Counted from the first letter of the stretch, positions 270-16,313 are shown. The stretch is DNA of 18,078 nucleotides from Gemmatimonadales bacterium (GCA_039794085.1 JBDIWC010000067.1:1-18078); one strand, 5' to 3'. A program made the numbers and translations. Notes: a model not told the origin generated them from the letters alone.

Positions 270-830
270 ATGCCGAAGCTGCTCGAACCGTGGACTCGCG
301 AACAGGTCCTGGCTCTGCCGGAAGATGGGATGCGTCACGAGCTGGTGGACGGAGTCCTGCTGGTGAGCCCGAGTCCTCGACCGCTTCACCAGGTGGGTGT
401 GTGGACGCTGAACCGGATCCTCGACGCCTGGGTCCGGAAGCATCGCCTTGGGCTCACGGGTCTTGCCCCGTGTGATCTGGACCTCCGCAGTGGCCAGCTC
501 CTGCAACCGGACCTCTTCGTGATCCCGCTCGATGACCGAAAGGTCCCCCACAGATGGGACGAGTTCGGCATCCCCACCCTGGTGGCGGAGGTGGTGTCCC
601 CCTCCACGGCCCGGCAGGACCGGGGCATGAAGCGGGTCCGGTACCAGCGCTCCGGAGTGGACGAGTACTGGATCGTCGATCTCGACACCCGCACGGTGGA
701 GCGCTGGCGCCCAGGAAGCGAGCGCCCGGAGGTGTTCCGTACCACGATTGCGTGGCGCCCTCCCGGAGCCAGCGACCCCCTTCGGATCGATCTCTTGGCG
801 TATTTCGCGGAGGTCTGGGGCGAGGTTTGA
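270..830 (+). CDS. Uma2 (DUF820) family PD-(D/E)XK-like endonuclease
   Basis: Family motifs: W-T-x-E...LPEDGMRHELVDG-L-VSPSP-PLHQ, QPDL, LVAEVVSPST...DR..K...YQRSGVDEYWIVD. The start is either 264 or 270. Confidence 0.92.
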   Translation: MPKLLEPWTREQVLALPEDGMRHELVDGVLLVSPSPRPLHQVGVWTLNRILDAWVRKHRLGLTGLAPCDLDLRSGQLLQPDLFVIPLDDRKVPHRWDEFGIPTLVAEVVSPSTARQDRGMKRVRYQRSGVDEYWIVDLDTRTVERWRPGSERPEVFRTTIAWRPPGASDPLRIDLLAYFAEVWGEV

Positions 831-834
831 GGGA

Positions 835-940
835 TCAATGAGCAATGATCAATGATCAGGGAACAATGATCAGGGAATAATGATCTTCACCCAGGATTCC
901 CTTATTGTTCATTGTTCACTGTTCATTGGTCATTGTTCAC
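835..940. repeat. Inverted pair of heptamer arrays (NCAATGA-type x7 and TCATTGT-type x5.5) forming a long imperfect hairpin
   Basis: 835-885: tcaatga gcaatga tcaatga tcaggga acaatga tcaggga ataatga tc. 902-940: ttattgt tcattgt tcactgt tcattgg tcattgt tcac. Confidence 0.9.
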
Positions 941-1441: not shown

Positions 1442-1545
1442 TCGAACCGCCCGATAAGAGCACACCCGGAGTGATCCGGGGCCGCAAAACTGGAGGTCTC
1501 AACTACCCCTTGGGGTTGAGATAGCTCGGTGCCGAAGGCGATCGA
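1442..1545 (+). ncRNA. GEMM-I cyclic dinucleotide riboswitch, A20 variant (candidate GEMM-Ib, 3',3'-cGAMP-sensing)
   Basis: P2: GC-ACA-CCCGGA-[GUGA GNRA loop]-UCCGGG-GCC-GC, followed by AAA. P3: ACUGGAG-GUCUCAAC...GUUGAGAU-AG-CUCGGU, followed by GCCG. P1: CGCC-CG (1448-1453) pairs with CG-AA-GGCG (1533-1540). This matches the GEMM consensus GGCAAAcc-GNRA-ggGaCGCAAA...GGUCU...GAUAGC...UGCC. Confidence 0.88.
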
Positions 1546-5160: not shown

Positions 5161-5220
5161 GTAGGCGGTAGGCGGTAGGCGGTAGGGAAGTGCGAAGTGT
5201 GAAGTGTGAAGTCTGAAGTG
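5161..5220 (+). repeat. Two fused heptamer arrays, (GTAGGCG)x3.7 and (GAAGTNN)x5
   Basis: gtaggcg gtaggcg gtaggcg gtagg, then gaagtgc gaagtgt gaagtgt gaagtct gaagtg. The array begins 2 nt after the MBL stop codon. Confidence 0.92.
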
Positions 5221-5245
5221 GACCCCGGCGTTCGCCGGGGTGACG
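5220..5245 (-). repeat. GTCA-headed REP palindrome (partner 16235-16260)
   Basis: GGACCCCGGCGTTCGCCGGGGTGACG, 24/26 identical to 16235-16260. Confidence 0.85.
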
Positions 5246-5274
5246 CTCCGATATGCCGTCGGAATTCCGATTCC

Positions 5275-5302
5275 CTTCGTGGCTTCGTGTCTTCGTGTGA
5301 GA
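5275..5302 (-). repeat. Octamer element TCA-(CACGAAGN)3, reverse orientation
   Basis: cttcgtgg cttcgtgt cttcgtg tgaga. Confidence 0.9.
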
Positions 5303-5323: not shown

Positions 5324-7240
5324 TCAGCCCCCGGAGGCGGTCACCAGGATCGGCTGGCTGGTCAGCAGGGATCCGTTCGCTCGGCGCACCTCCAGGGAAT
5401 AGGACCCGGGGCGGGGGAATCGCACCTGCATGTCACGGGTCTCCCCGATGCTGACGGTGGTACGGGCCTCGCTCCGTGTCCGCTGCCACTGCGGGAGATC
5501 GTATCCATCCCGTGCGAGAGGGGTCCACCGGATCGGAACCCCTCCACCGACGAGCCAGAACTCGAGATTGGGGCCCCCCATCGAGATGTTCATCAGGCGG
5601 AACCGGTAGTCCGTGCCCGCCTGGAGTTCCCGCACCGGGTGCTCGGTGCGCCCATTCAGAATGGGGGCAAAGTCCGCGCCCTCCCCGATCTGAAAAACGA
5701 AGTCGTGAGCGGGATCCCACGATTCCCCGGGCTCCAGCACGAGCAGTGCACCCCAGAGGCCCCGGCTCTGCTGGATCAGGTCGTTGATGTGGGTGTGGTA
5801 CATGAAGCTCCCGCTCCGGGGCGGTGTCACCCGCACCTCGAACGTCCCCCCCGACCGGATCGCCGGAGCGGGGGACGTGGCGTATCCACCCACACCGACC
5901 ACACCGTCGAAGGGGCTCTCGATTTCGAGTCCATGCCAATGAACCGAGGTGGGCTGGGGCGTGTTGTTGTGCACCAGAATGCTGGTCGGTTCGCCGCGCC
6001 GCATCACGATCGTGGCCCCGGGAGCCTGGACTGAATCGGCCGAGGGGGGAGCGGCGCCCTCCTGGAGCACGTACCCGTAACGCCGGAGAGAGTCGGTCGG
6101 GGTCGAGTCGGACTGGATGTAGAGGTGAAGCTGGCGCCGGGCGCTCTCGGCGGGCGGGGTCCACCCCGGAGCGGGCCGGACCTGCATCGCGATCATGAGC
6201 CCTCCCATCCCCCGCTCGACATGATCGTCGGGATGGTCGAGATGGCCCATGAAAAGTTCGTGTTCCCGTTGTTCCTTCGTGGGGCGCAGCTCGGGCCCGA
6301 TCCCGGTATTCGGGGCCACGTGCCAGTTGAGATGGCAATGGAAAACCCACCCGCCGGGCCGGTCCGGGGAGAAGCTCATCCGCATCGTGGCCCCGGGGAC
6401 CAGACGTTGGGTTACCGCCATGGTGCGCTGGGACTCCCAGTAGACGGTGTCGCGGACCATGTCACCCAGGGCATCGAGCCGGAAGTAGAAGCCGTGGAGA
6501 TGGAAGGGGTGAACATCCGCGCTGGTGTTGATGATCCGCCAGTGAACCGAGTCACCCACCGTATACTCGAACCGCTCGGTCCGGGGCCAGGGACGGCCGT
6601 TGATCGTGAAGAGCTCATGGTCGAGGTTTGGTTCGCCAACCGAATCGCGAGTCTGGACCCAGAATCCGGCCACCAGGATTCGATCCTTCGGGGGCCCGGT
6701 GGTACCCGCTGGATCCACGACAAGGGCGCCGTGCAGCTGGCTGTCCTCGTAGACGCGCGTGGCCACGCTGTTGCCGGGGAATCCGCCCCAGTAGTAGTAG
6801 GTCCCCTCGACGTCCGCGGTGAAGGACGCGGTGCCGGTCTGCCCCGGGGAAAGGACCAGGGTGTCGAGCATCGTCTGGCGGCGCCCGGAGAGACCATGCA
6901 CCACGATGGTGGTATCCAGGGTATTGGTGACGGTCACCTGCAGGGGGGTACCCTCGACCACCCGGATCATCGGGCCCGGGATCTCGGGACCTCGTCCCAC
7001 CTCCTGAAAGGCGAGGATCCGTTCCTTTCCTCCCTTCGGCCCGGCCGGCTCCCACTCCCCCTCGACGACTTCCAGGGCAATCACGGTCGCGCTCTCCCGG
7101 ACCGTGCCGGCGGCGCGCAGGTTGTCATTCTGGGCGACCCGGGGGAGAACCCGCTCTCCGGACCCGGTCACCACGAGAGGCACGCTCAGGCCCAGAAGTC
7201 CAGCCGCAACAAGTCCCGTGACCTTCGGAGTCGAACGCAT
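5324..7240 (-). CDS. Secreted multicopper oxidase with four cupredoxin domains in non-canonical order
   Basis: Signal peptide, IPGPMIRVVEG, HPFHLHG, WVFHCHLNWH...HVERGM, SVHWHG, FMYHTH and YRFRLMNIS. Confidence 0.92.
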   Translation of the reverse strand: MRSTPKVTGLVAAGLLGLSVPLVVTGSGERVLPRVAQNDNLRAAGTVRESATVIALEVVEGEWEPAGPKGGKERILAFQEVGRGPEIPGPMIRVVEGTPLQVTVTNTLDTTIVVHGLSGRRQTMLDTLVLSPGQTGTASFTADVEGTYYYWGGFPGNSVATRVYEDSQLHGALVVDPAGTTGPPKDRILVAGFWVQTRDSVGEPNLDHELFTINGRPWPRTERFEYTVGDSVHWRIINTSADVHPFHLHGFYFRLDALGDMVRDTVYWESQRTMAVTQRLVPGATMRMSFSPDRPGGWVFHCHLNWHVAPNTGIGPELRPTKEQREHELFMGHLDHPDDHVERGMGGLMIAMQVRPAPGWTPPAESARRQLHLYIQSDSTPTDSLRRYGYVLQEGAAPPSADSVQAPGATIVMRRGEPTSILVHNNTPQPTSVHWHGLEIESPFDGVVGVGGYATSPAPAIRSGGTFEVRVTPPRSGSFMYHTHINDLIQQSRGLWGALLVLEPGESWDPAHDFVFQIGEGADFAPILNGRTEHPVRELQAGTDYRFRLMNISMGGPNLEFWLVGGGVPIRWTPLARDGYDLPQWQRTRSEARTTVSIGETRDMQVRFPRPGSYSLEVRRANGSLLTSQPILVTASGG

Positions 7241-7357
7241 TCGTCACCCTCGTCGTGAAGGAATCAGGCGAGCCACCGAGCCATCAATGTGTAAAGTTGC
7301 TGACAAATCCTACGGTACCGGTCGGGTTTGCGCAAGAACCCGGTCCGGGGTGCTCGG

Positions 7358-8917
7358 TGTCACACGAAGGCACGAAGTCACGAAGAAGAGAGGGGTTGGA
7401 GACGGGATCGGTGGATCGTGGGTGTTGGAGGGTCGGTCAACCAACAAGCCTTGGGGTGTTTGATCTCACGCGAAGACGCGAAGGCGCGAAGAAGAGAGTG
7501 TCGGGCAATTGGGGGCGCGGGAAGGCATACGGTATGCCAGGAGCATCAAGGGGTGGCTAGGATGAGGGAGGGGGCCCGCGCCAGGGTCCGCGTGTGACAG
7601 GGCAGCGCCGGGTGCCCACCACAACTCGAACGCCACTCATCGGTTCCTCGCAGGTTGGCGTGAAACAGTTCACTGCTGGTGACACGGGGGCTATCCTGTC
7701 CCTACGCGAATGTAACGCCGAACGGTTACAGGGCTCGGCTCGCGCGCTTGGCTCTCGTTTATCGGCTCCGGCCGGGGTGATTCCGGTTACCCGTCATGCA
7801 CGTTCAGGCTTTACAGTCTCACACGAAGACACGAAGGCACGAAGGTGAACGTGAAAGAGTGCCGCAGCAGGCATGCATCATTCTGGTGGAGTGGCCCCTG
7901 GCGCGAGATCATCACGTTCAGGCCCTCCCCTGCCGTCTCGCTCGAAGACACGAGGACGCCCTTCGTGCCTTCGTGTCTTCGTGTGACCACATCGTCCGCG
8001 CAGGTCGAGGCAGGATGTTCCGAGGCGCGTGATGGACCGTACGGTATGCCGAGGACAAAGAACACAGGGGAGGAGGCGGTTCATGCGGCCAGACGACAAT
8101 GCAAGGACCGAACTTGATCCCGAGCAGTTCTCCGCCATCGTGGTGGATGCCGCGTTCCATCTGCATCGGGATCTGGGTCCAGGATTGCTCGAATCGGTCT
8201 ACCAGGTGCTCCTGGCGCGGGTACTGGAAAGGCGTGGACTGCGCGTCGAGCTCCAGAAACCGGTCATTTTTGACTACGACGGGCTTCGCTTCGAGGGAGG
8301 ATTGCGGGTCGACCTCCTGGTGAACGGGAAACTTGTGGTCGAGTTGAAGTCGGTCGAGAAGCTGGCCCCGGTCCACGCCAAGCAGGTACTTACCTACCTC
8401 CGTCTCCTCGGGTTGCCGCTCGGGCTCCTGATCAACTTCGGCGCGGCTACCTTCCGCGAGGGCTGCAAACGCATCGTGAACGGCCCGCAGGCAGTTGCCC
8501 TCTCACAGCTGCGGGTGAATCGGCAGTCACCTCCGGCGGATGTCGGTTCGAGGCAAGTCGGTTGTTTGATCTCACACGAAGACACGAAGACACGAAGACA
8601 CGAAGGGGGTGACCGCCCGCTCGCATCGAAGCGAGATATTCCGAAATGGGCGATGGACTGTGCGGTACGCCGAGCCAAGGACACCGACGAAGAAGAGGCC
8701 ACGTCATGCAGCAAGCCGAAGATACGAGTAACGAAACTCAGTGTCGTTTCGGGGTAAAAGCGGCTATCCAACCTCACGCGAAGACACGAAGGCACGAAGA
8801 TGAATCGGAGGGGCAGGCCCATTTTATAACACGCCAAGCCATTCCCGATCGGATCAAGGCACTCTGAAGGAGATGGCGACGCTCACCCCCTTCGTGCCTT
8901 CGTGCCTTCGTGTGACC
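7358..8917. repeat. Cluster of eight TCA-(CACGAAGN)3-4 octamer elements around the GxxExxY gene
   Basis: Forward copies: 7358-7385, 7464-7491 (CGCGAAG variant), 7817-7844, 7936-7956 (degenerate), 8570-8605 (4 units) and 8772-8799. Reverse copies: 7961-7988 and 8890-8917. Confidence 0.92.
8083..8757 (+). CDS. GxxExxY protein (PDDEXK_3 nuclease-like) with a repeat-derived C-terminal read-through extension
   Basis: AGGAGG RBS at 8071-8076. Motifs LHRDLGPGLLESVY, RVDLLV..KLVVELKSVE, HAKQVLTYLRL and GLLINFG...KRIVN. The conserved domain ends at ~8481. Confidence 0.93.
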   Translation: MRPDDNARTELDPEQFSAIVVDAAFHLHRDLGPGLLESVYQVLLARVLERRGLRVELQKPVIFDYDGLRFEGGLRVDLLVNGKLVVELKSVEKLAPVHAKQVLTYLRLLGLPLGLLINFGAATFREGCKRIVNGPQAVALSQLRVNRQSPPADVGSRQVGCLISHEDTKTRRHEGGDRPLASKRDIPKWAMDCAVRRAKDTDEEEATSCSKPKIRVTKLSVVSG

Positions 8918-9007
8918 CCTCTGCTCTTCCCCCTGCCGGTTGACCCGCGCCCGCCGAGTCGCGATTCTACGGGGTTGTTCCTCTCCCCATCCCCTGGAGC
9001 ACTACCC

Positions 9008-12000
9008 ATGCGGCGACCCCTGATCGCACTCGGATCCCTGGCCTTTCTCCTTCTGTCCGCGGCACAACCGGCGCCGGCCCAGACCCTTCTCCTTCGCCAG
9101 CCCACGGTCAGCGCCCGGCAGATCGCCTTCTCCTACGCCAACAACATCTGGATCGTGGACCGCGCCGGCGGGAACGCCCACCGGCTCACCAGCTTCCAGG
9201 GCCAGGAAACCAACCCCAAGCTCTCCCCCGACGGACGCTGGGTCGCCTTCAGCGGACAGTACGGCGGCAACACCGACGTCTACCTCGTGCCCTCGGAGGG
9301 GGGCGAGCCCACCCGGCTCACCTGGCATACCTCGCCCGACCTGGTGCAAGGGTGGTCTCCCGATGGCCGGCGTGTGGTGTTCACCTCCACCCGTGCCGCT
9401 GCGCCGTCCGGAACTGCGGTCAATTTCTGGAGCGTGTCCACCGAGGGCGGGCTCCCGGCGCCGCTGCCGATGCACCGCGGATGGCAGGGGAAGTATTCCC
9501 CCGACGGATCCCGGTTCGCCTACCGGCTCGCCACCAGTTGGGATGACGAGCGACGCAACTACCGCGGGGGACAGAACAAGCCGATCTGGATCGTGAACCT
9601 TCCCGGTCTCGACCTGGAGACGGTGCCCTGGGAGGGGAGCAAGGACATCGACCCGGTGTGGGTGGGGGAGACGGTCTACTTCGCCTCCGACCGCGACTGG
9701 GTGAGCAACGTCTGGTCTTACAACACGCGCACCAGGACCGTCGCCCAGGTGACCACCTTCACCGACTTCGACGTGAAGGCACTCGATGCCGGCGGCGGCG
9801 CGGTGGTGTTCGAGCAGGGAGGCCGGATTCACCTCCTCGACCCGGCCACCGGCCGGAGTGCTCCGGTCAACATCACCGTCCGGGGCGACTTCCCCTGGCT
9901 CATGCCCACCTGGCAGCAGGTGCAGAACCGGATTGTGAACGCCGCCCTCTCCCCGACGGGCAAACGCGCCGTCTTCGAGGCCCGGGGGGAGATCTTCACC
10001 GTCCCCGCCGACAAGGGTGACTGGCGCAACCTCTCCAACAGCGCCACAAGCGCCGAACGGAACCCGGCCTGGAGCCCGGACGGGAAATGGATCAGCTGGT
10101 TCACCGACGCGAGCGGCGAGTACCAGCTCGTGATCGCTCCGCAGGACGGGCTCGGCGACAAGCGCACCATCCGGCTTCCCAACCCCTCGTTCCAGTACAC
10201 CCCGTCCTGGAGTCCCGATTCGAAGAAGCTCCTCTTCACCGACACCGGGCTCCGGCTTCAGGTCGTGGACGTGGAGAGCGGTCGCGTCACCCATGCCGAC
10301 ACCGACACCTACATGGCACCGGCCCGCACCATGGATCCGGTGTGGAGCCCCGACTCCCGCTGGATCGCGTATGCCAAGCGTCAGCCCAGCCAGTTCCACG
10401 CGGTGCATGTGTATGACGTTCAGGAAGGCCGCACGCACCAGGTGACCGACGGGCTCTCCGATGCCCTGTCGCCGACCTGGGACGCCTCGGGCAAGTATCT
10501 CTGGTTCCTCGCCTCCACCAACTTCGCCCTCAACACCGGCTGGCTCGACATGACGAGCTACGACCGGCCGGTGACCCGGGCCCTCTACCTGGCGGTGCTT
10601 TCCCGCACCGAGGCGTCACCCCTCGCGCCGGAGAGCGACGAGGAGGGGGTGGCCCCCGACTCCAGCGCCCGGCCCGGACGCGGGACCCCGGCCGCTCCCA
10701 CCGTCTCCATCGATTTCGACGGCCTGACCAGCCGGATCCTCTCCGTCGACGTGACACCGCGGAACTACGGCGACCTGCGCGCGGGACCGGCAGGCACGGT
10801 GTTCTTCCTGGAGAACCTCCCCGCCACCGGGGTCGGCGGCGGTCCTCCACCCGCCAACGCGCTCCATCGCTACCAGCTCAAGGACCGGGAAGCGAAGCCC
10901 TTCCTCCCCAACGTTCAGGCCTATACTCTCTCGGCCGACGGCAAGAAGCTGCTCTACCGCACCCCGGGGCAGAACGGCTCCTGGGCCATCGTCGATGCCG
11001 ACAAGGCCCCCCCGCCCCCGCAGGGTACCGTGGGCCGGCTCAACCTCGCCTCCCTCCGCATGCGGGTGGACCCGACGGTGGAGTATCCGCAGATGTTCGC
11101 CGAAGGGTGGCGGATCCAGCGCGACTACCTCTATGTGCCCAACGCGCATGGGTCGGACTGGCCGCGGATGAAGACGATGTACCAGCCGTTCCTGTCCCAC
11201 GTGCGGCACCGAGCCGACTTCAACTACCTGATGGACATGATGGGCGGGGAACTCGCCATCGGGCACAGCTACGTGCGGGGCGGCGATTTCCCCGACATCC
11301 CCAACGCCACCGTCGGATATCTCGGCGCCGACTACACCATCACCAACAACCGGTACCGGATCGCGAAGATCTACACCGGCGAGAGCTGGAACCCGCAGTT
11401 GCAGGCACCGCTCAGCGGGCCCGGCCTGAACGTGGCCGCGGGCGACTACCTGATGGCGATCGACGGCGTCCCCCTCGCGGGCACCGACAACATCCACCAG
11501 GTCATGGAGGGCCGAGCCGGACGCCAGACCGTTCTCACCCTCAATGCCCAGCCGTCACTCACCGGTGCACGACAGGTGACCGTGGTTCCGGTCGGGAACG
11601 AGAACGGGCTCCGGCAGTTCGACTGGATCGAGTCGAACCGGCGGAAGGTTGATTCCCTCTCCAGCGGCCGACTGGCCTACATCTACGTCCCCAACACCGG
11701 GCAGCCGGGGTATACCTACTTCAACCGGTACTTCTTTGCCCAGCAGCACAAGCCGGGCGCCATCATCGACGAGCGCTACAACGGCGGCGGTTCCGCGGCC
11801 GACTACATGGTCGAGGTGATGAACCGGAAGCTGCTCGGCTACTTCAACAACGCCGTGGGAGAGCGCCAGCCGTTCACCACGCCGGGCGCCGGGATCTGGG
11901 GCCCCAAGGTCATGATCATCAACGAGATGGCGGGCTCCGGCGGGGATCTTCTCCCTCACATGTTCCGCACACTCGGCATCGGCCCGATCGTGGGCCAACG

Positions 12001-13843: not shown

Positions 13844-13921
13844 TTGGGCGGTAGGCTGTAGGCGGTGGGCGGTAGGGGGGAATTACATACGCCCGGGGGT
13901 GGGTGTTGGGTGTTGGGTGTT
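13844..13921 (+). repeat. Heptamer arrays (GTAGGCG-type x5 and GGGTGTT x3)
   Basis: 13844-13878: ttgggcg gtaggct gtaggcg gtgggcg gtagggg. 13901-13921: gggtgtt x3. Confidence 0.85.
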
Positions 13922-14566: not shown

Positions 14567-14594
14567 CTTCGTGTCTTCGTGCCGTCGTGTGAAA
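14567..14594 (-). repeat. Solo octamer element, reverse orientation
   Basis: cttcgtgt cttcgtgc cgtcgtg tgaaa. Confidence 0.85.
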
Positions 14595-14620: not shown

Positions 14621-14656
14621 CTCCTTCGAACTTCACACTTCACACTTCGAACCTCA
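14621..14656 (-). repeat. Heptamer array (GAAGTNN on the minus strand) overlapping the TPR gene stop codon
   Basis: ctccttc gaacttc acacttc acacttc gaacctc a. Confidence 0.88.
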
Positions 14657-16159
14657 ACGTCGCTGATTCACCGCGAGCCGGGAACGCGCCTCTCGGGCCG
14701 TCGCGACGTCTCCCGCGGCGGTCGCGGCGGCGGCGAGACCCTTGAGGGCCAGCGATCGGCCCGGGGCCAGGGCCAGCGCCTGTTCGAAGGCTCGCTGCGC
14801 GTCGGCGGGCCTGCCGTCCTCCAGCAGCCACTCGCCGAGCAACTCGAAGCTCGGCTTCACCACGTCCGGGGGCCCGAACTCCGCGGGCATCGCCGCTTCC
14901 GTCGCGGCCGCATGGCGGAGCATGGCGGTGGCGGAATCCCGTCCCCCCGCCCCCTCCGCCCGGACCAGACGCGCCTGGAACTGGAGCAGGAGGATGGCGG
15001 GGACCGACGGGTTCGCGCTGTAGAAATCGTCACGCGCCTCGGCGCCGACCGTGCCCGTGAGTGCCTCAAGATGCTCACGGGCACCAGGTTCGTCTCCCCG
15101 ATGGAAGGCCGCGACCCCCAGAGCATAGTGAATCATGGCCTGGGCCACGGGTCCGGAGGGACCCGGCACCACCGGCCAGCGGCTCACCGGATCGTCCCAC
15201 CGCTCGCTGTTGATCAGATAATGGGCCCGCATCGAGAGGAGATTCGGAGATTCTCCCCGCCGCCCCGAGGGGGTCGCATTGTCATGCACTCGGAGGAGGA
15301 GCTCGCGGGCATCGTCGAACCGACCCTGCTGCAGGAGTCCGTACCCGAGCCATGCCGTGTAATGTCCCGCCCGCCAACCCGCCCGATCAGGCCCGGCGGC
15401 CACCTCGTTCTGGGAGACCACCCGGTCCCACATTCCCAGGGCAAGAAAGATGTGGGTGGTCATGTGCTGCGCATGCGGTGCCGCGGGGGCGATGTCGATG
15501 TACCGGTTCGCGGCATGCAGGCCGAGGGGCGCGTGAACCGGATCGTCGAAGGCGTGGATGACGTAATGGGCGGCACCGGGGTGATCCTGATTCCGCCGGA
15601 ACGCTTCGTTGGCCACGGCCCCGGCCCGCATGTAGGTGGGGACGTGCCGCACCCCCTGGCTCAGGCCGATCAGGGCAAGGGCGTGAAAGACCTGAGCTTC
15701 ATCGTCATCGGGGAAGTCGGCCACCACCTGTTCCATGGCCCGGGCATAGAGGGTATCCCGCAGGGGCTTGGACCCGTCTCCATACAATGTTTCCACAGCC
15801 GCGAGCCAGGCCCGCTCCCGGGGAGTGGGAGCCCGGGCCAGTCGGGCCTCCCGGGTGGCGCCGAGACGCTGGAGCACCGTGCGGGCGGCATCGAGGTCCT
15901 GTTCGTTCCAGACCGGATGGGTGTGGGTCATCGCCTCACCCCACACCGCCATCACCAGGTTCGGATCGAGGGCCCGCGCCTCCCGGAACGCGGCGGCGGC
16001 CCGGTCATACTCGAAGCTGTGGAGGAGGGCCACCCCGCGGGTGAACACCTCCCGCGCCTCGGCGGACCCCGTGACCGGGAAGTGCACGGTGCCCACCTGG
16101 GCTGCGGCGGGGGCCAGCGTGATCGTGCACCAGGCGAGCAGGAACGTGACGGATCGCAT
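14654..16159 (-). CDS. Secreted tetratricopeptide-repeat protein
   Basis: Signal peptide ...APAAA|Q, GTVHFPVTGS.EA...F.RGVALLHSFEY, HPGAAHYVIHAFD, APHAQHMTTHIF.ALGMW and a C-terminal TPR (AFEQALALAPGRS). Confidence 0.88.
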   Translation of the reverse strand: MRSVTFLLAWCTITLAPAAAQVGTVHFPVTGSAEAREVFTRGVALLHSFEYDRAAAAFREARALDPNLVMAVWGEAMTHTHPVWNEQDLDAARTVLQRLGATREARLARAPTPRERAWLAAVETLYGDGSKPLRDTLYARAMEQVVADFPDDDEAQVFHALALIGLSQGVRHVPTYMRAGAVANEAFRRNQDHPGAAHYVIHAFDDPVHAPLGLHAANRYIDIAPAAPHAQHMTTHIFLALGMWDRVVSQNEVAAGPDRAGWRAGHYTAWLGYGLLQQGRFDDARELLLRVHDNATPSGRRGESPNLLSMRAHYLINSERWDDPVSRWPVVPGPSGPVAQAMIHYALGVAAFHRGDEPGAREHLEALTGTVGAEARDDFYSANPSVPAILLLQFQARLVRAEGAGGRDSATAMLRHAAATEAAMPAEFGPPDVVKPSFELLGEWLLEDGRPADAQRAFEQALALAPGRSLALKGLAAAATAAGDVATAREARSRLAVNQRR

Positions 16160-16234
16160 CGGACTTCCCTTGAGGATGGGGTGGTGTGATCGTATCACCG
16201 GAAACAGCGGGTGTCAAAGGAGGTCCTGGATGAT

Positions 16235-16260
16235 GGATCCCGGCGTTCGCCGGGATGACG
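16235..16260 (-). repeat. GTCA-headed REP palindrome (partner 5220-5245)
   Basis: GGATCCCGGCGTTCGCCGGGATGACG. Confidence 0.85.
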
Positions 16261-16271
16261 ATCGTCGAAGA

Positions 16272-16313
16272 TCCTATGTCCTATGCCCTATGTCCTACGT
16301 CCTCTGTCCTGCG
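16272..16313 (-). repeat. Heptamer array (TCCTAYG x6) encoding the MscS C-terminus and stop codon
   Basis: tcctatg tcctatg ccctatg tcctacg tcctctg tcctgcg. Confidence 0.9.

Follow-up and report, generated by a model that had tools for sequence, protein, structure and literature searches.

Introduction

RAYTs are HUH (Y1) transposases, able both to cut DNA and to re-join it. As described in the accessible part of one report, a RAYT gene is flanked by repeats that also occur without a gene, in inverted doublets, and these REP doublets are thought to derive from an ancestral autonomous element (PMC3116915). The Ssn/NTS/SRM systems, as far as the available text of a second report goes, pair a small single-domain nuclease gene with a cognate dispersed repeat, comprise many enzyme-repeat pairs and have expanded genome-wide in some hosts; the cognate repeat flanks 71% of Ssn genes on one side and 42% on both, the enzyme is of the GIY-YIG type, and the repeat is a 20–50-nt hairpin in itself (PMC11893778). 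A third precedent concerns repeats only: the 'class 2 predicted global regulator binding sites' of Geobacter metallireducens consist, in the portion of the report at hand, of three tandem TCTCCGTS[Y] units that form inward inverted pairs, mostly 85–195 nt apart and intergenic, and were read as IHF/HU-type sites; its site tables, to the extent accessible, name no link to GxxExxY genes (PMC2700814). The function of the PDDEXK_3/GxxExxY family is given as 'Unknown' in the available part of PMC3424549, and the mostly open-access literature that we searched, including the accessible text of 10.1101/2021.01.26.428298, held no account of a link between GxxExxY genes and repeats.

Here we describe a locus of a Gemmatimonadales bacterium (GCA_039794085.1; G000, 4.16 Mb) that lies in the 18,078-nt stretch JBDIWC010000067.1:1-18078, hereafter the window, and in which an earlier note had seen a REPtron-like system. 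It is real and non-random, a system of a repeat with its predicted cognate nuclease, and not a REPtron. As in REP/RAYT systems, a cognate repeat flanks the gene in relatives, is dispersed in the genome and is also found without a gene in inverted doublets; however, the enzyme is of the PD-(D/E)XK and not the HUH type, the gene matching only PF13366 and TIGR04256 with Y1 genes lying elsewhere; its repeat arrays, or arms, are direct tandem octamers that form stems only between two arms, whereas the core of a REP is palindromic; and strict doublets make up the smaller part of the family (13 among 131 arrays; by a looser score, 41 arrays have an inward partner against 4 with an outward one). The system shares with Ssn systems all the general features listed above, but has a PD-(D/E)XK protein, of which activity is only predicted, in place of a GIY-YIG enzyme (profile and structure searches found no GIY-YIG domain in it), three direct octamers in place of a self-hairpin, and arms that often overlap coding sequence. 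The Geobacter unit reads CACGGAG on the other strand and has the same three-unit inward layout, but differs in unit variant and head. Terminal inverted arms and internally deleted non-coding derivatives also recall insertion sequences and MITEs, which differ in that here no DDE or other transposase and no target duplication were seen, and the arms are iterated and partly in frame. Unlike ORF-bearing rRNA intervening sequences, the locus does not lie within an rRNA gene: the window has no rRNA match and the neighbours are protein genes.

Results and discussion

The window carries an intact gene for a predicted GxxExxY nuclease

The ORF at the centre of the locus (Table 1) matches TIGR04256 at 121.8 bits (cut-off 35) and PF13366 at 122 bits (cut-off 22). 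Aligning 48 proteins revealed that G34, E37, Y40, E87, K89, Q101 and Y105 are invariant and that D77 is conserved in at least 90%; we take the Q101/Y105 pair to resemble the QxxxY motif of the RecB family. With D77, E87 and K89 all present, the D...ExK motif is intact, as the earlier note had it. The predicted structure (pLDDT 90) has a restriction-endonuclease-like fold, and, among the matches listed, its best structural neighbours are the Cas4/RecB-like proteins SSO0001 (4IC1) and Pcal_0546 (4R5Q) together with Uma2/DUF820-like proteins. Foldseek gave a best E of 1.7e-3 at a probability of 1.0, with no match at E <0.001, and structural comparison by VIA gave Z 7.8–8.1 at an rmsd of 3.3–4.5 over ~100 aligned positions with 12–23% identity, although a Z near 8 may mean only a common arrangement. 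Cas4 is a nuclease that acts on single-stranded ends; the window protein has a fold in common with Cas4/RecB-like nucleases, and a shared fold shows no function. Homodimer prediction for the window protein scored 0.00 and gave no verdict either way, and a promoter scan found no sigma-70-like promoter for the gene. These features identify the window gene as an intact GxxExxY gene for a predicted nuclease of the PD-(D/E)XK fold.

Octamer arrays surround the gene but do not form its ends

Searching the window for TCA(CACGAAGN)3 with at most 3 mismatches returned 10 rows, as against 0 in 200 shuffles. The row at 8580 is a shifted duplicate of the four-unit array beginning at 8572, leaving 9 distinct arrays (Table 1), 7 of them within 7360–8915; the ten copies reported earlier, eight of them in 7358–8917, would be reached by adding the decayed array at ~7934–7957, which belongs to repeat family D6. 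Both reported inverted pairs were confirmed, each folding into a hairpin (z of -6.85 for the pair 7819/7986 and -5.46 for 8774/8915), both reverse copies do terminate in GTGTGACC, and the pattern search recovered the solo arrays near 5275 and 14567. By contrast, the two arrays closest to the gene, 7961 on the minus strand and 8572 on the plus strand, face outward, and the flanking doublets, said to bracket the gene, are not its canonical ends; array 8572 is even located within the unconserved tail of the ORF. Positions 8582–8615 are 91% complementary to 8880–8913, and the 7360/7466 pair is a separate cluster that lies ~2.5 kb farther off in the sister genome (G001).

Across the whole genome, the eighth base of the unit, taken earlier to vary freely, is instead biased (A 147, G 52, C 19 and T 3 of 221). 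The supposedly fixed CACGAAG varies at its second base, reading CACGAAG or CGCGAAG, while the TCA head is largely kept, its three bases being retained in 119, 127 and 124 of 131 arrays. We name arm types by their unit: GAAG for C[AG]CGAAG (CRCGAAG), which is the window type, and GGAG; some arms are built of 9-mers. Rfam contained no family matching the octamer arrays.

Table 1. Features of the window, with group II intron sites elsewhere in the last row
Feature	Position	Strand	Basis or remark
109-nt direct repeat, 84%, near both contig ends	12-120 and 17837-17945		
Uma2-family nuclease gene, then inverted heptamer-array pair	264-830 and 830-939		
c-di-GMP-I riboswitch	1449-1536		48.3 bits; upstream of ORF 1558-2076, which belongs to no known family
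Heptamer tandem arrays	2064-2346, 5161-5220, 13847-13921, 14630-14661, 16272-16310		
REP-like palindrome	5219-5248 and 16234-16263		104 genome copies at <=4 mismatches
Solo array	5275..5300	-	Pattern search
Array of separate upstream cluster	7360..7385	+	Not at that place in G001
CGCGAAG-type array	7466..7491	+	G001 counterpart split by group II intron
Initial 11 codons of a gene found whole in G001	7608..7640	-	Junction of ~2.5-kb difference
Array, left arm of upstream gene-less doublet	7819..7844	+	Pattern search, hairpin fold
Decayed array directly before 7961 array	7934..7957	+	Repeat family D6; decay differs in G001
Tract with only 8 differences from G001 (99.3%)	7959..9042	.	Alignment
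Array, right arm of upstream doublet; left edge of near-identical G001 tract	7961..7986	-	
Shine-Dalgarno-like GGAGGAGG preceding ATG at 8083	8069..8076	+	Sequence
GxxExxY gene, 224 aa ORF; nuclease domain 8125-8478	8083..8757	+	Profile matches
Decayed canonical 3' arm inside ORF	8493..8520	-	Peptide L-R-V-N kept, DNA repeat lost
Four-unit array, three units in G001	8572..8605	+	Pattern search, G001 alignment
Diverged copy of gene leader and first ~9 codons (7993-8112)	8614..8735	+	Local alignment
Array inside downstream stub element; can pair with 8890-8915	8774..8799	+	Pattern search, fold
Array closing downstream stub element or doublet	8890..8915	-	Pattern search, fold
Solo array, present in G001 too	14567..14592	-	Pattern search, G001 comparison
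Group II intron sites	G000:C19:9724-11685; G001 L109/L110; G000:C15 near 110		

Relatives of the gene sit in an arm-gene-arm cassette

We compared the window with 160 related loci, 80 from GTDB genomes (many bacterial phyla and three archaea) and 80 from metagenomes, and found the usual unit to be a ~450-bp cassette composed of an inward octamer arm, the gene and a second arm. An octamer triplet lies at most 300 nt from the gene in 60 of the 80 GTDB relatives, whereas each farther 300-nt bin held at most 4 matches and Markov controls gave 0–1 of 80; the proposed enrichment of the repeat beside GxxExxY genes is thus borne out. Upstream arms on the plus strand were present in 34 of these 80 loci and downstream arms on the minus strand in 58. 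A cognate repeat on both sides of the gene, an arrangement also seen among the Ssn systems, was found in 32 of 80 GTDB relatives by the strict pattern and in 62 of 80 metagenome loci by a looser pattern run without a control, which detected at least one arm in 78 of 80.

Many 3' arms are read in frame as S-x-R-L-R-V-N. Where an arm occupies that register (36 loci), conservation extends to its third codon positions; the constraint therefore acts on nucleic acid. Many relatives sit tightly between co-oriented genes. Their neighbours are diverse: by best Pfam hit, 132 of 154 flanking ORFs from 77 loci represent about 60 families, with restriction-modification or RhuM genes adjoining 19 of the 77 loci. 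A check for carriage on phages or plasmids gave matches in 0 of 50,697 phage records and in 4 of 72,556 plasmid records, and pointed to no vehicle.

The window copy lacks arms at its own ends

Judged from its sequence, the window copy is atypical in that no repeat arms are left at its own ends. At 8493–8520 the DNA matches 15 of 26 consensus positions, in the same register that holds an intact arm in 36 of 80 relatives; the 5' arm has presumably been lost as well, since no arm is found at the usual place. Past about residue 146 the ORF tail is unconserved read-through: the G001 ORF, with one octamer fewer, is shortened to 173 aa, and the tail is therefore not conserved. The leader copy within this region aligns at a local score of 82 (shuffle mean 21, maximum 39 of 1000), with 68% identity over 112 nt, and is enclosed by 8572–8615 and 8880–8915, which can pair; its position inside pairing arrays makes 8572–8915 probably the stub of a tandem second cassette copy.

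The window gene is positioned between divergent genes, and the locus occupies the same site in G000 and G001. The tract that is nearly identical between them is surrounded by divergence of ~5% downstream and >10% upstream; when 26 other G001 loci were tried, 23 gave a 600-nt alignment and one reached 99%. The near-identical tract suggests a recent exchange of the cassette region, although ordinary homologous recombination may also account for it. With its in-frame 3' arm decayed, its locus shared with the sister genome and 8572–8915 probably a stub of a tandem second copy, the window copy is likely a settled descendant. In a same-genus genome (G002, 90% complete), a genome search found neither a GxxExxY gene nor arrays, in a tally that took in the unpublished G016; G002 was ruled out as an empty site because the whole 5.3-kb interval is absent.

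A difference of ~2.5 kb at 7608–7640 brings the 7360/7466 arrays near the cassette. In G001, ~2.5 kb with extra genes lies between the 7466-type array and position 7608; the genes missing at window 7492–7607 (L110; G001:C17:12000-14500) presumably encode relatives of a short-chain dehydrogenase, a MoaD-like protein and a BNR-repeat protein. A second near-identical tract (L154, G001:C102, against G000:C23) extends over 600 nt at 99.8% and has no GxxExxY gene.

Arm type follows the protein clade

Several observations link the repeat to the protein: firstly, of the 68 loci that could be typed, 59 carry one arm type at both ends, compared with a shuffle mean of 23 and maximum of 33; secondly, arm type changes 19 times on the protein tree as against 39 when shuffled, on a tree from a quick search of 123 columns with 42 of 82 branches open, on which kin are not independent and single-count arm labels (e.g. 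L052, L064, L068) may be noise; thirdly, the window protein falls in a 35-row group (SH-aLRT 98) that holds 20 of the 22 GAAG rows. The closest relative, L192 (82% identity), has intact CACGAAG arms at both ends, and all 12 relatives with at least 72% identity, among the 160, have GAAG arms; Fisher tests on arm type among the 160 overstate the association, as kin are not independent. Geobacter-type CACGGAG units flank the genes of L060, L065 and L122. As judged from these alignments and trees, arm type follows the protein clade and not the host, and the predicted co-variation of repeat and protein is upheld.

The same separation is seen within G000, which carries 5 full and 3 truncated GxxExxY genes (profile search): a different repeat unit stands beside each full paralog, and the C76 paralog, with GGAG arms, is placed among the GGAG rows of the tree. 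We also surveyed 251 genomes of the phylum, in tallies that include the unpublished G081 and G172. GxxExxY is encoded by 87 of them overall and by 17 of the 19 that have a strict array, including all 11 with at least 5 arrays (kin again not being independent), so that the expected co-occurrence was found. A close-clade gene was detected in 15 genomes, 8 with at least 5 arrays and 7 with no strict array, while G018, G166 and G203 have 5–23 arrays and no close-clade match.

Arrays are dispersed through the genome

G000 contains 131 arrays of at least two C[AG]CGAAG units, in 68 clusters, as compared with 0 in the reversed genome, and only 7 of the 131 lie within 1 kb of any GxxExxY gene. Singletons number 40, and neighbouring arrays face the same way in 49 cases, inward in 13 (the strict doublets) and outward in 1; a looser score assigns an inward partner to 41 of the 131 arrays and an outward partner to 4, and 44 lack any partner within 450 nt. 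A separate 9-mer family in G000 occurs mostly as doublets. For 65 of the 131 arrays, against a random mean of 12, an unrelated heptamer array stands no more than 300 nt away, and general repeat hot spots therefore contribute to their distribution. Period-7 arrays number 717 in G000, and several heptamer families co-cluster with octamers in fast-changing intergenic mosaics.

Shared sequence ends at the 5' arm, and some derivatives keep their arms

To examine element ends, we paired related cassettes that have both arms and are at least 78% identical in DNA, which gave 114 pairs from 42 loci. The sequence in common starts at most 12 nt from the head of the 5' arm in 91 of the 114 pairs and ends at most 12 nt from the 3' arm in 73, a result that is partly trivial, as homology at ~80% identity will tend to stop at conserved arms. 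Among 19 disjoint pairs, 10 have long common flanks and represent the same locus, and 9 come from different loci. In the latter, the left end falls at most 14 nt from the 5' arm head in 9 of 9, while the right end falls within 12 nt in 5 and 37–112 nt out in 4; identity reaches 97–98% in two of the nine despite their different neighbourhoods. A comparison of arm identity within and between loci was set aside, the pairs having been pre-selected for identity.

Derivatives with arms are found in more than one clade. Three truncated G000 copies (C76:1295-1483, C37:10865-11053 and C37:11531-11719) have both GGAG arms intact and one common deletion junction; L169 (G001:C194) is a truncated GxxExxY copy between 9-mer arms, and the orthologous site in G000 (C62:1867-1871) has kept the arms and lost the interior, a gene-less doublet derived from a truncated gene; L203 holds tandem stub copies. 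The truncated derivatives share 25–200 nt of sequence beyond their arms. Truncated copies of two clades stop near profile position 51–53, equivalent to about residue 60 of the window protein and directly before the 3' arm, which is possibly a preferred deletion point. At L168 (G001:C55), a GxxExxY gene with ACAGGATG-type arms is accompanied by a 5' stub copy; its counterpart G000:C79:5346-5464 keeps one ACAGGATG-type array and lacks the gene. A fragment common to G000:C76 upstream of 2060 and to C37:11300-11430, in both cases upstream of GGAG-type copies, reads like what we take to be part of a restriction endonuclease gene.

Clean filled and empty sites were not found between the genomes: among 24 array sites screened in G000 and G001, 7 of them aligned in detail, there was no precise arm-to-arm insertion, and the 7 differed by mosaic duplications whose ends are not at arms. 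The C76 and C94 paralog sites were rejected as empty sites, being replaced or rearranged in G001 and not precisely empty. No target-site duplication was seen at 13 doublets (by eye) or in 6 related pairs. In a search for excision across 6800–9600, contigs of four DNA runs showed no interpretable event: every joint connected two repeat copies, most had short sides, and we treated them as repeat artefacts.

A candidate mechanism and its alternatives

Any account has to accommodate the arm-gene-arm anatomy, the match between arm type and clade, the boundaries at the 5' arm, and the truncated and gene-less derivatives. Since the repeats bracket relatives of the gene in many bacteria and archaea and reach 131 copies in G000, the enzyme likely recognises the repeats and helps to spread them. 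The idea that GxxExxY mobilises or processes its repeat has thus come through the computational tests of the link, while its analogy to a REPtron is limited to the overall logic. We see an even chance that a GxxExxY protein recognises the octamer of its own clade and cuts near the TCA head, with host repair copying the cassette and its derivatives. The protein would bind the iterated octamer, the cut would fall near the outer TCA head of an arm, and host repair, in place of transposase-style joining, would carry copies of the cassette, and of derivatives with deletions, into further intergenic sites; the 131 CRCGAAG arrays would be, or would once have been, targets in trans for the window enzyme. 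PD-(D/E)XK hydrolases work without a covalent intermediate and are unable to re-join DNA on their own, and spread would therefore need host repair, which fits the ragged ends and the missing target duplications.

A broader proposal is offered tentatively, and we expect it to prove wrong somewhat sooner than right: such cassettes could add to REP/RAYT and NTS/Ssn a third type of system that joins a repeat to a nuclease, minimal, transposase-free and built on ~130-residue, Cas4-like, clade-specific enzymes. Each clade would read its own tandem 8- or 9-mer, cut at the arms and co-opt host repair, and so spread the cassettes together with their gene-less derivatives. The window locus would then be a domesticated master copy without arms that passed recently between two species and seeded more than 100 arrays.

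The nuclease could alternatively be domesticated in the manner of Ssn, cutting single-stranded or hairpin DNA at the repeat and modulating recombination or incoming DNA, while the repeats spread mainly through host duplication. We judge this unlikely as the whole story, and it is compatible with cutting and host-repair copying as set out above. The window gene lost its own 3' arm yet kept all its catalytic residues, it stands at one site in both G000 and G001, Cas4 is among its closest folds, and 19 of 77 loci have restriction-modification or RhuM neighbours; Ssn/NTS, in the accessible account, has the same gene-repeat logic (PMC11893778). However, the distribution is patchy, G002 having neither gene nor arrays, near-identical cassettes occur in different neighbourhoods, and frequent decayed copies fit selfish turnover.

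Arrays that are operators, bound and not cut either by the protein as a passenger or simple autoregulator or by a host factor, would multiply by slippage and local duplication in intergenic hot spots. Mosaic indels not bounded by arms, the co-clustering with heptamers (65 against 12 expected), the excess of same-direction neighbours over inward pairs (49 against 13), the operator-like overlap of arms with the start region and, in the available text, the reading of a sister family as regulator sites (PMC2700814) all point this way. Set against them, the catalytic residues are invariant, the second, inverted 3' arm is conserved at synonymous positions, arm type tracks clade with different repeats beside paralogs of one genome, and inward partners outnumber outward ones by 41 to 4; we regard an operator role as rather improbable.

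The arms form long stems, and many relatives lie tightly between co-oriented genes, as would suit an RNA-level intervening sequence, in which pairing of the arms in the mRNA leads to excision or protection of the cassette and lets it ride operon junctions harmlessly. Yet mismatches between the arms show no sense-strand G-U bias (29 G-U against 37 A-C, p=0.39, 45 loci), the window copy lies between divergent genes and has no 3' arm, most G000 arrays are not in doublets, and spread would be left unexplained, making this reading quite doubtful. Finally, mobilisation of the arrays in trans by a Y1/HUH transposase, with GxxExxY as cargo, is very improbable: G000 does have 5 Y1_Tnp matches, but no GAAG array lies within ~4.9 kb of them, single arms are not palindromic, and arm type follows the GxxExxY clade across phyla.

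The clade-specific arms give the widespread GxxExxY/PDDEXK_3 family a defined candidate substrate, and the G000 paralogs with their different arms provide a built-in specificity control. If recognition by the nuclease and copying by host repair is the correct account, it would explain abundant intergenic tandem-octamer repeats that were earlier read as regulator sites, show a way for repeats to spread that relies on a PD-(D/E)XK enzyme and needs no transposase, and could be a source of very small nucleases that recognise many different sequences by nature.

Other features of the window and genomes

Several further features were noted. The Uma2-like gene of the window is followed by an array pair, and 6 of the 11 Uma2-like genes in G000 have no array nearby. 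At G000:C34:9908-10851, a four-helix-bundle (23S_rRNA_IVP) gene is followed by four tandem fragments of itself, like the stub arrays of GxxExxY. Group II introns with an RT-like ORF lie inside GAAG arrays in two places, at the step CG^CGAAG, and beside a related 9-mer array in a third.
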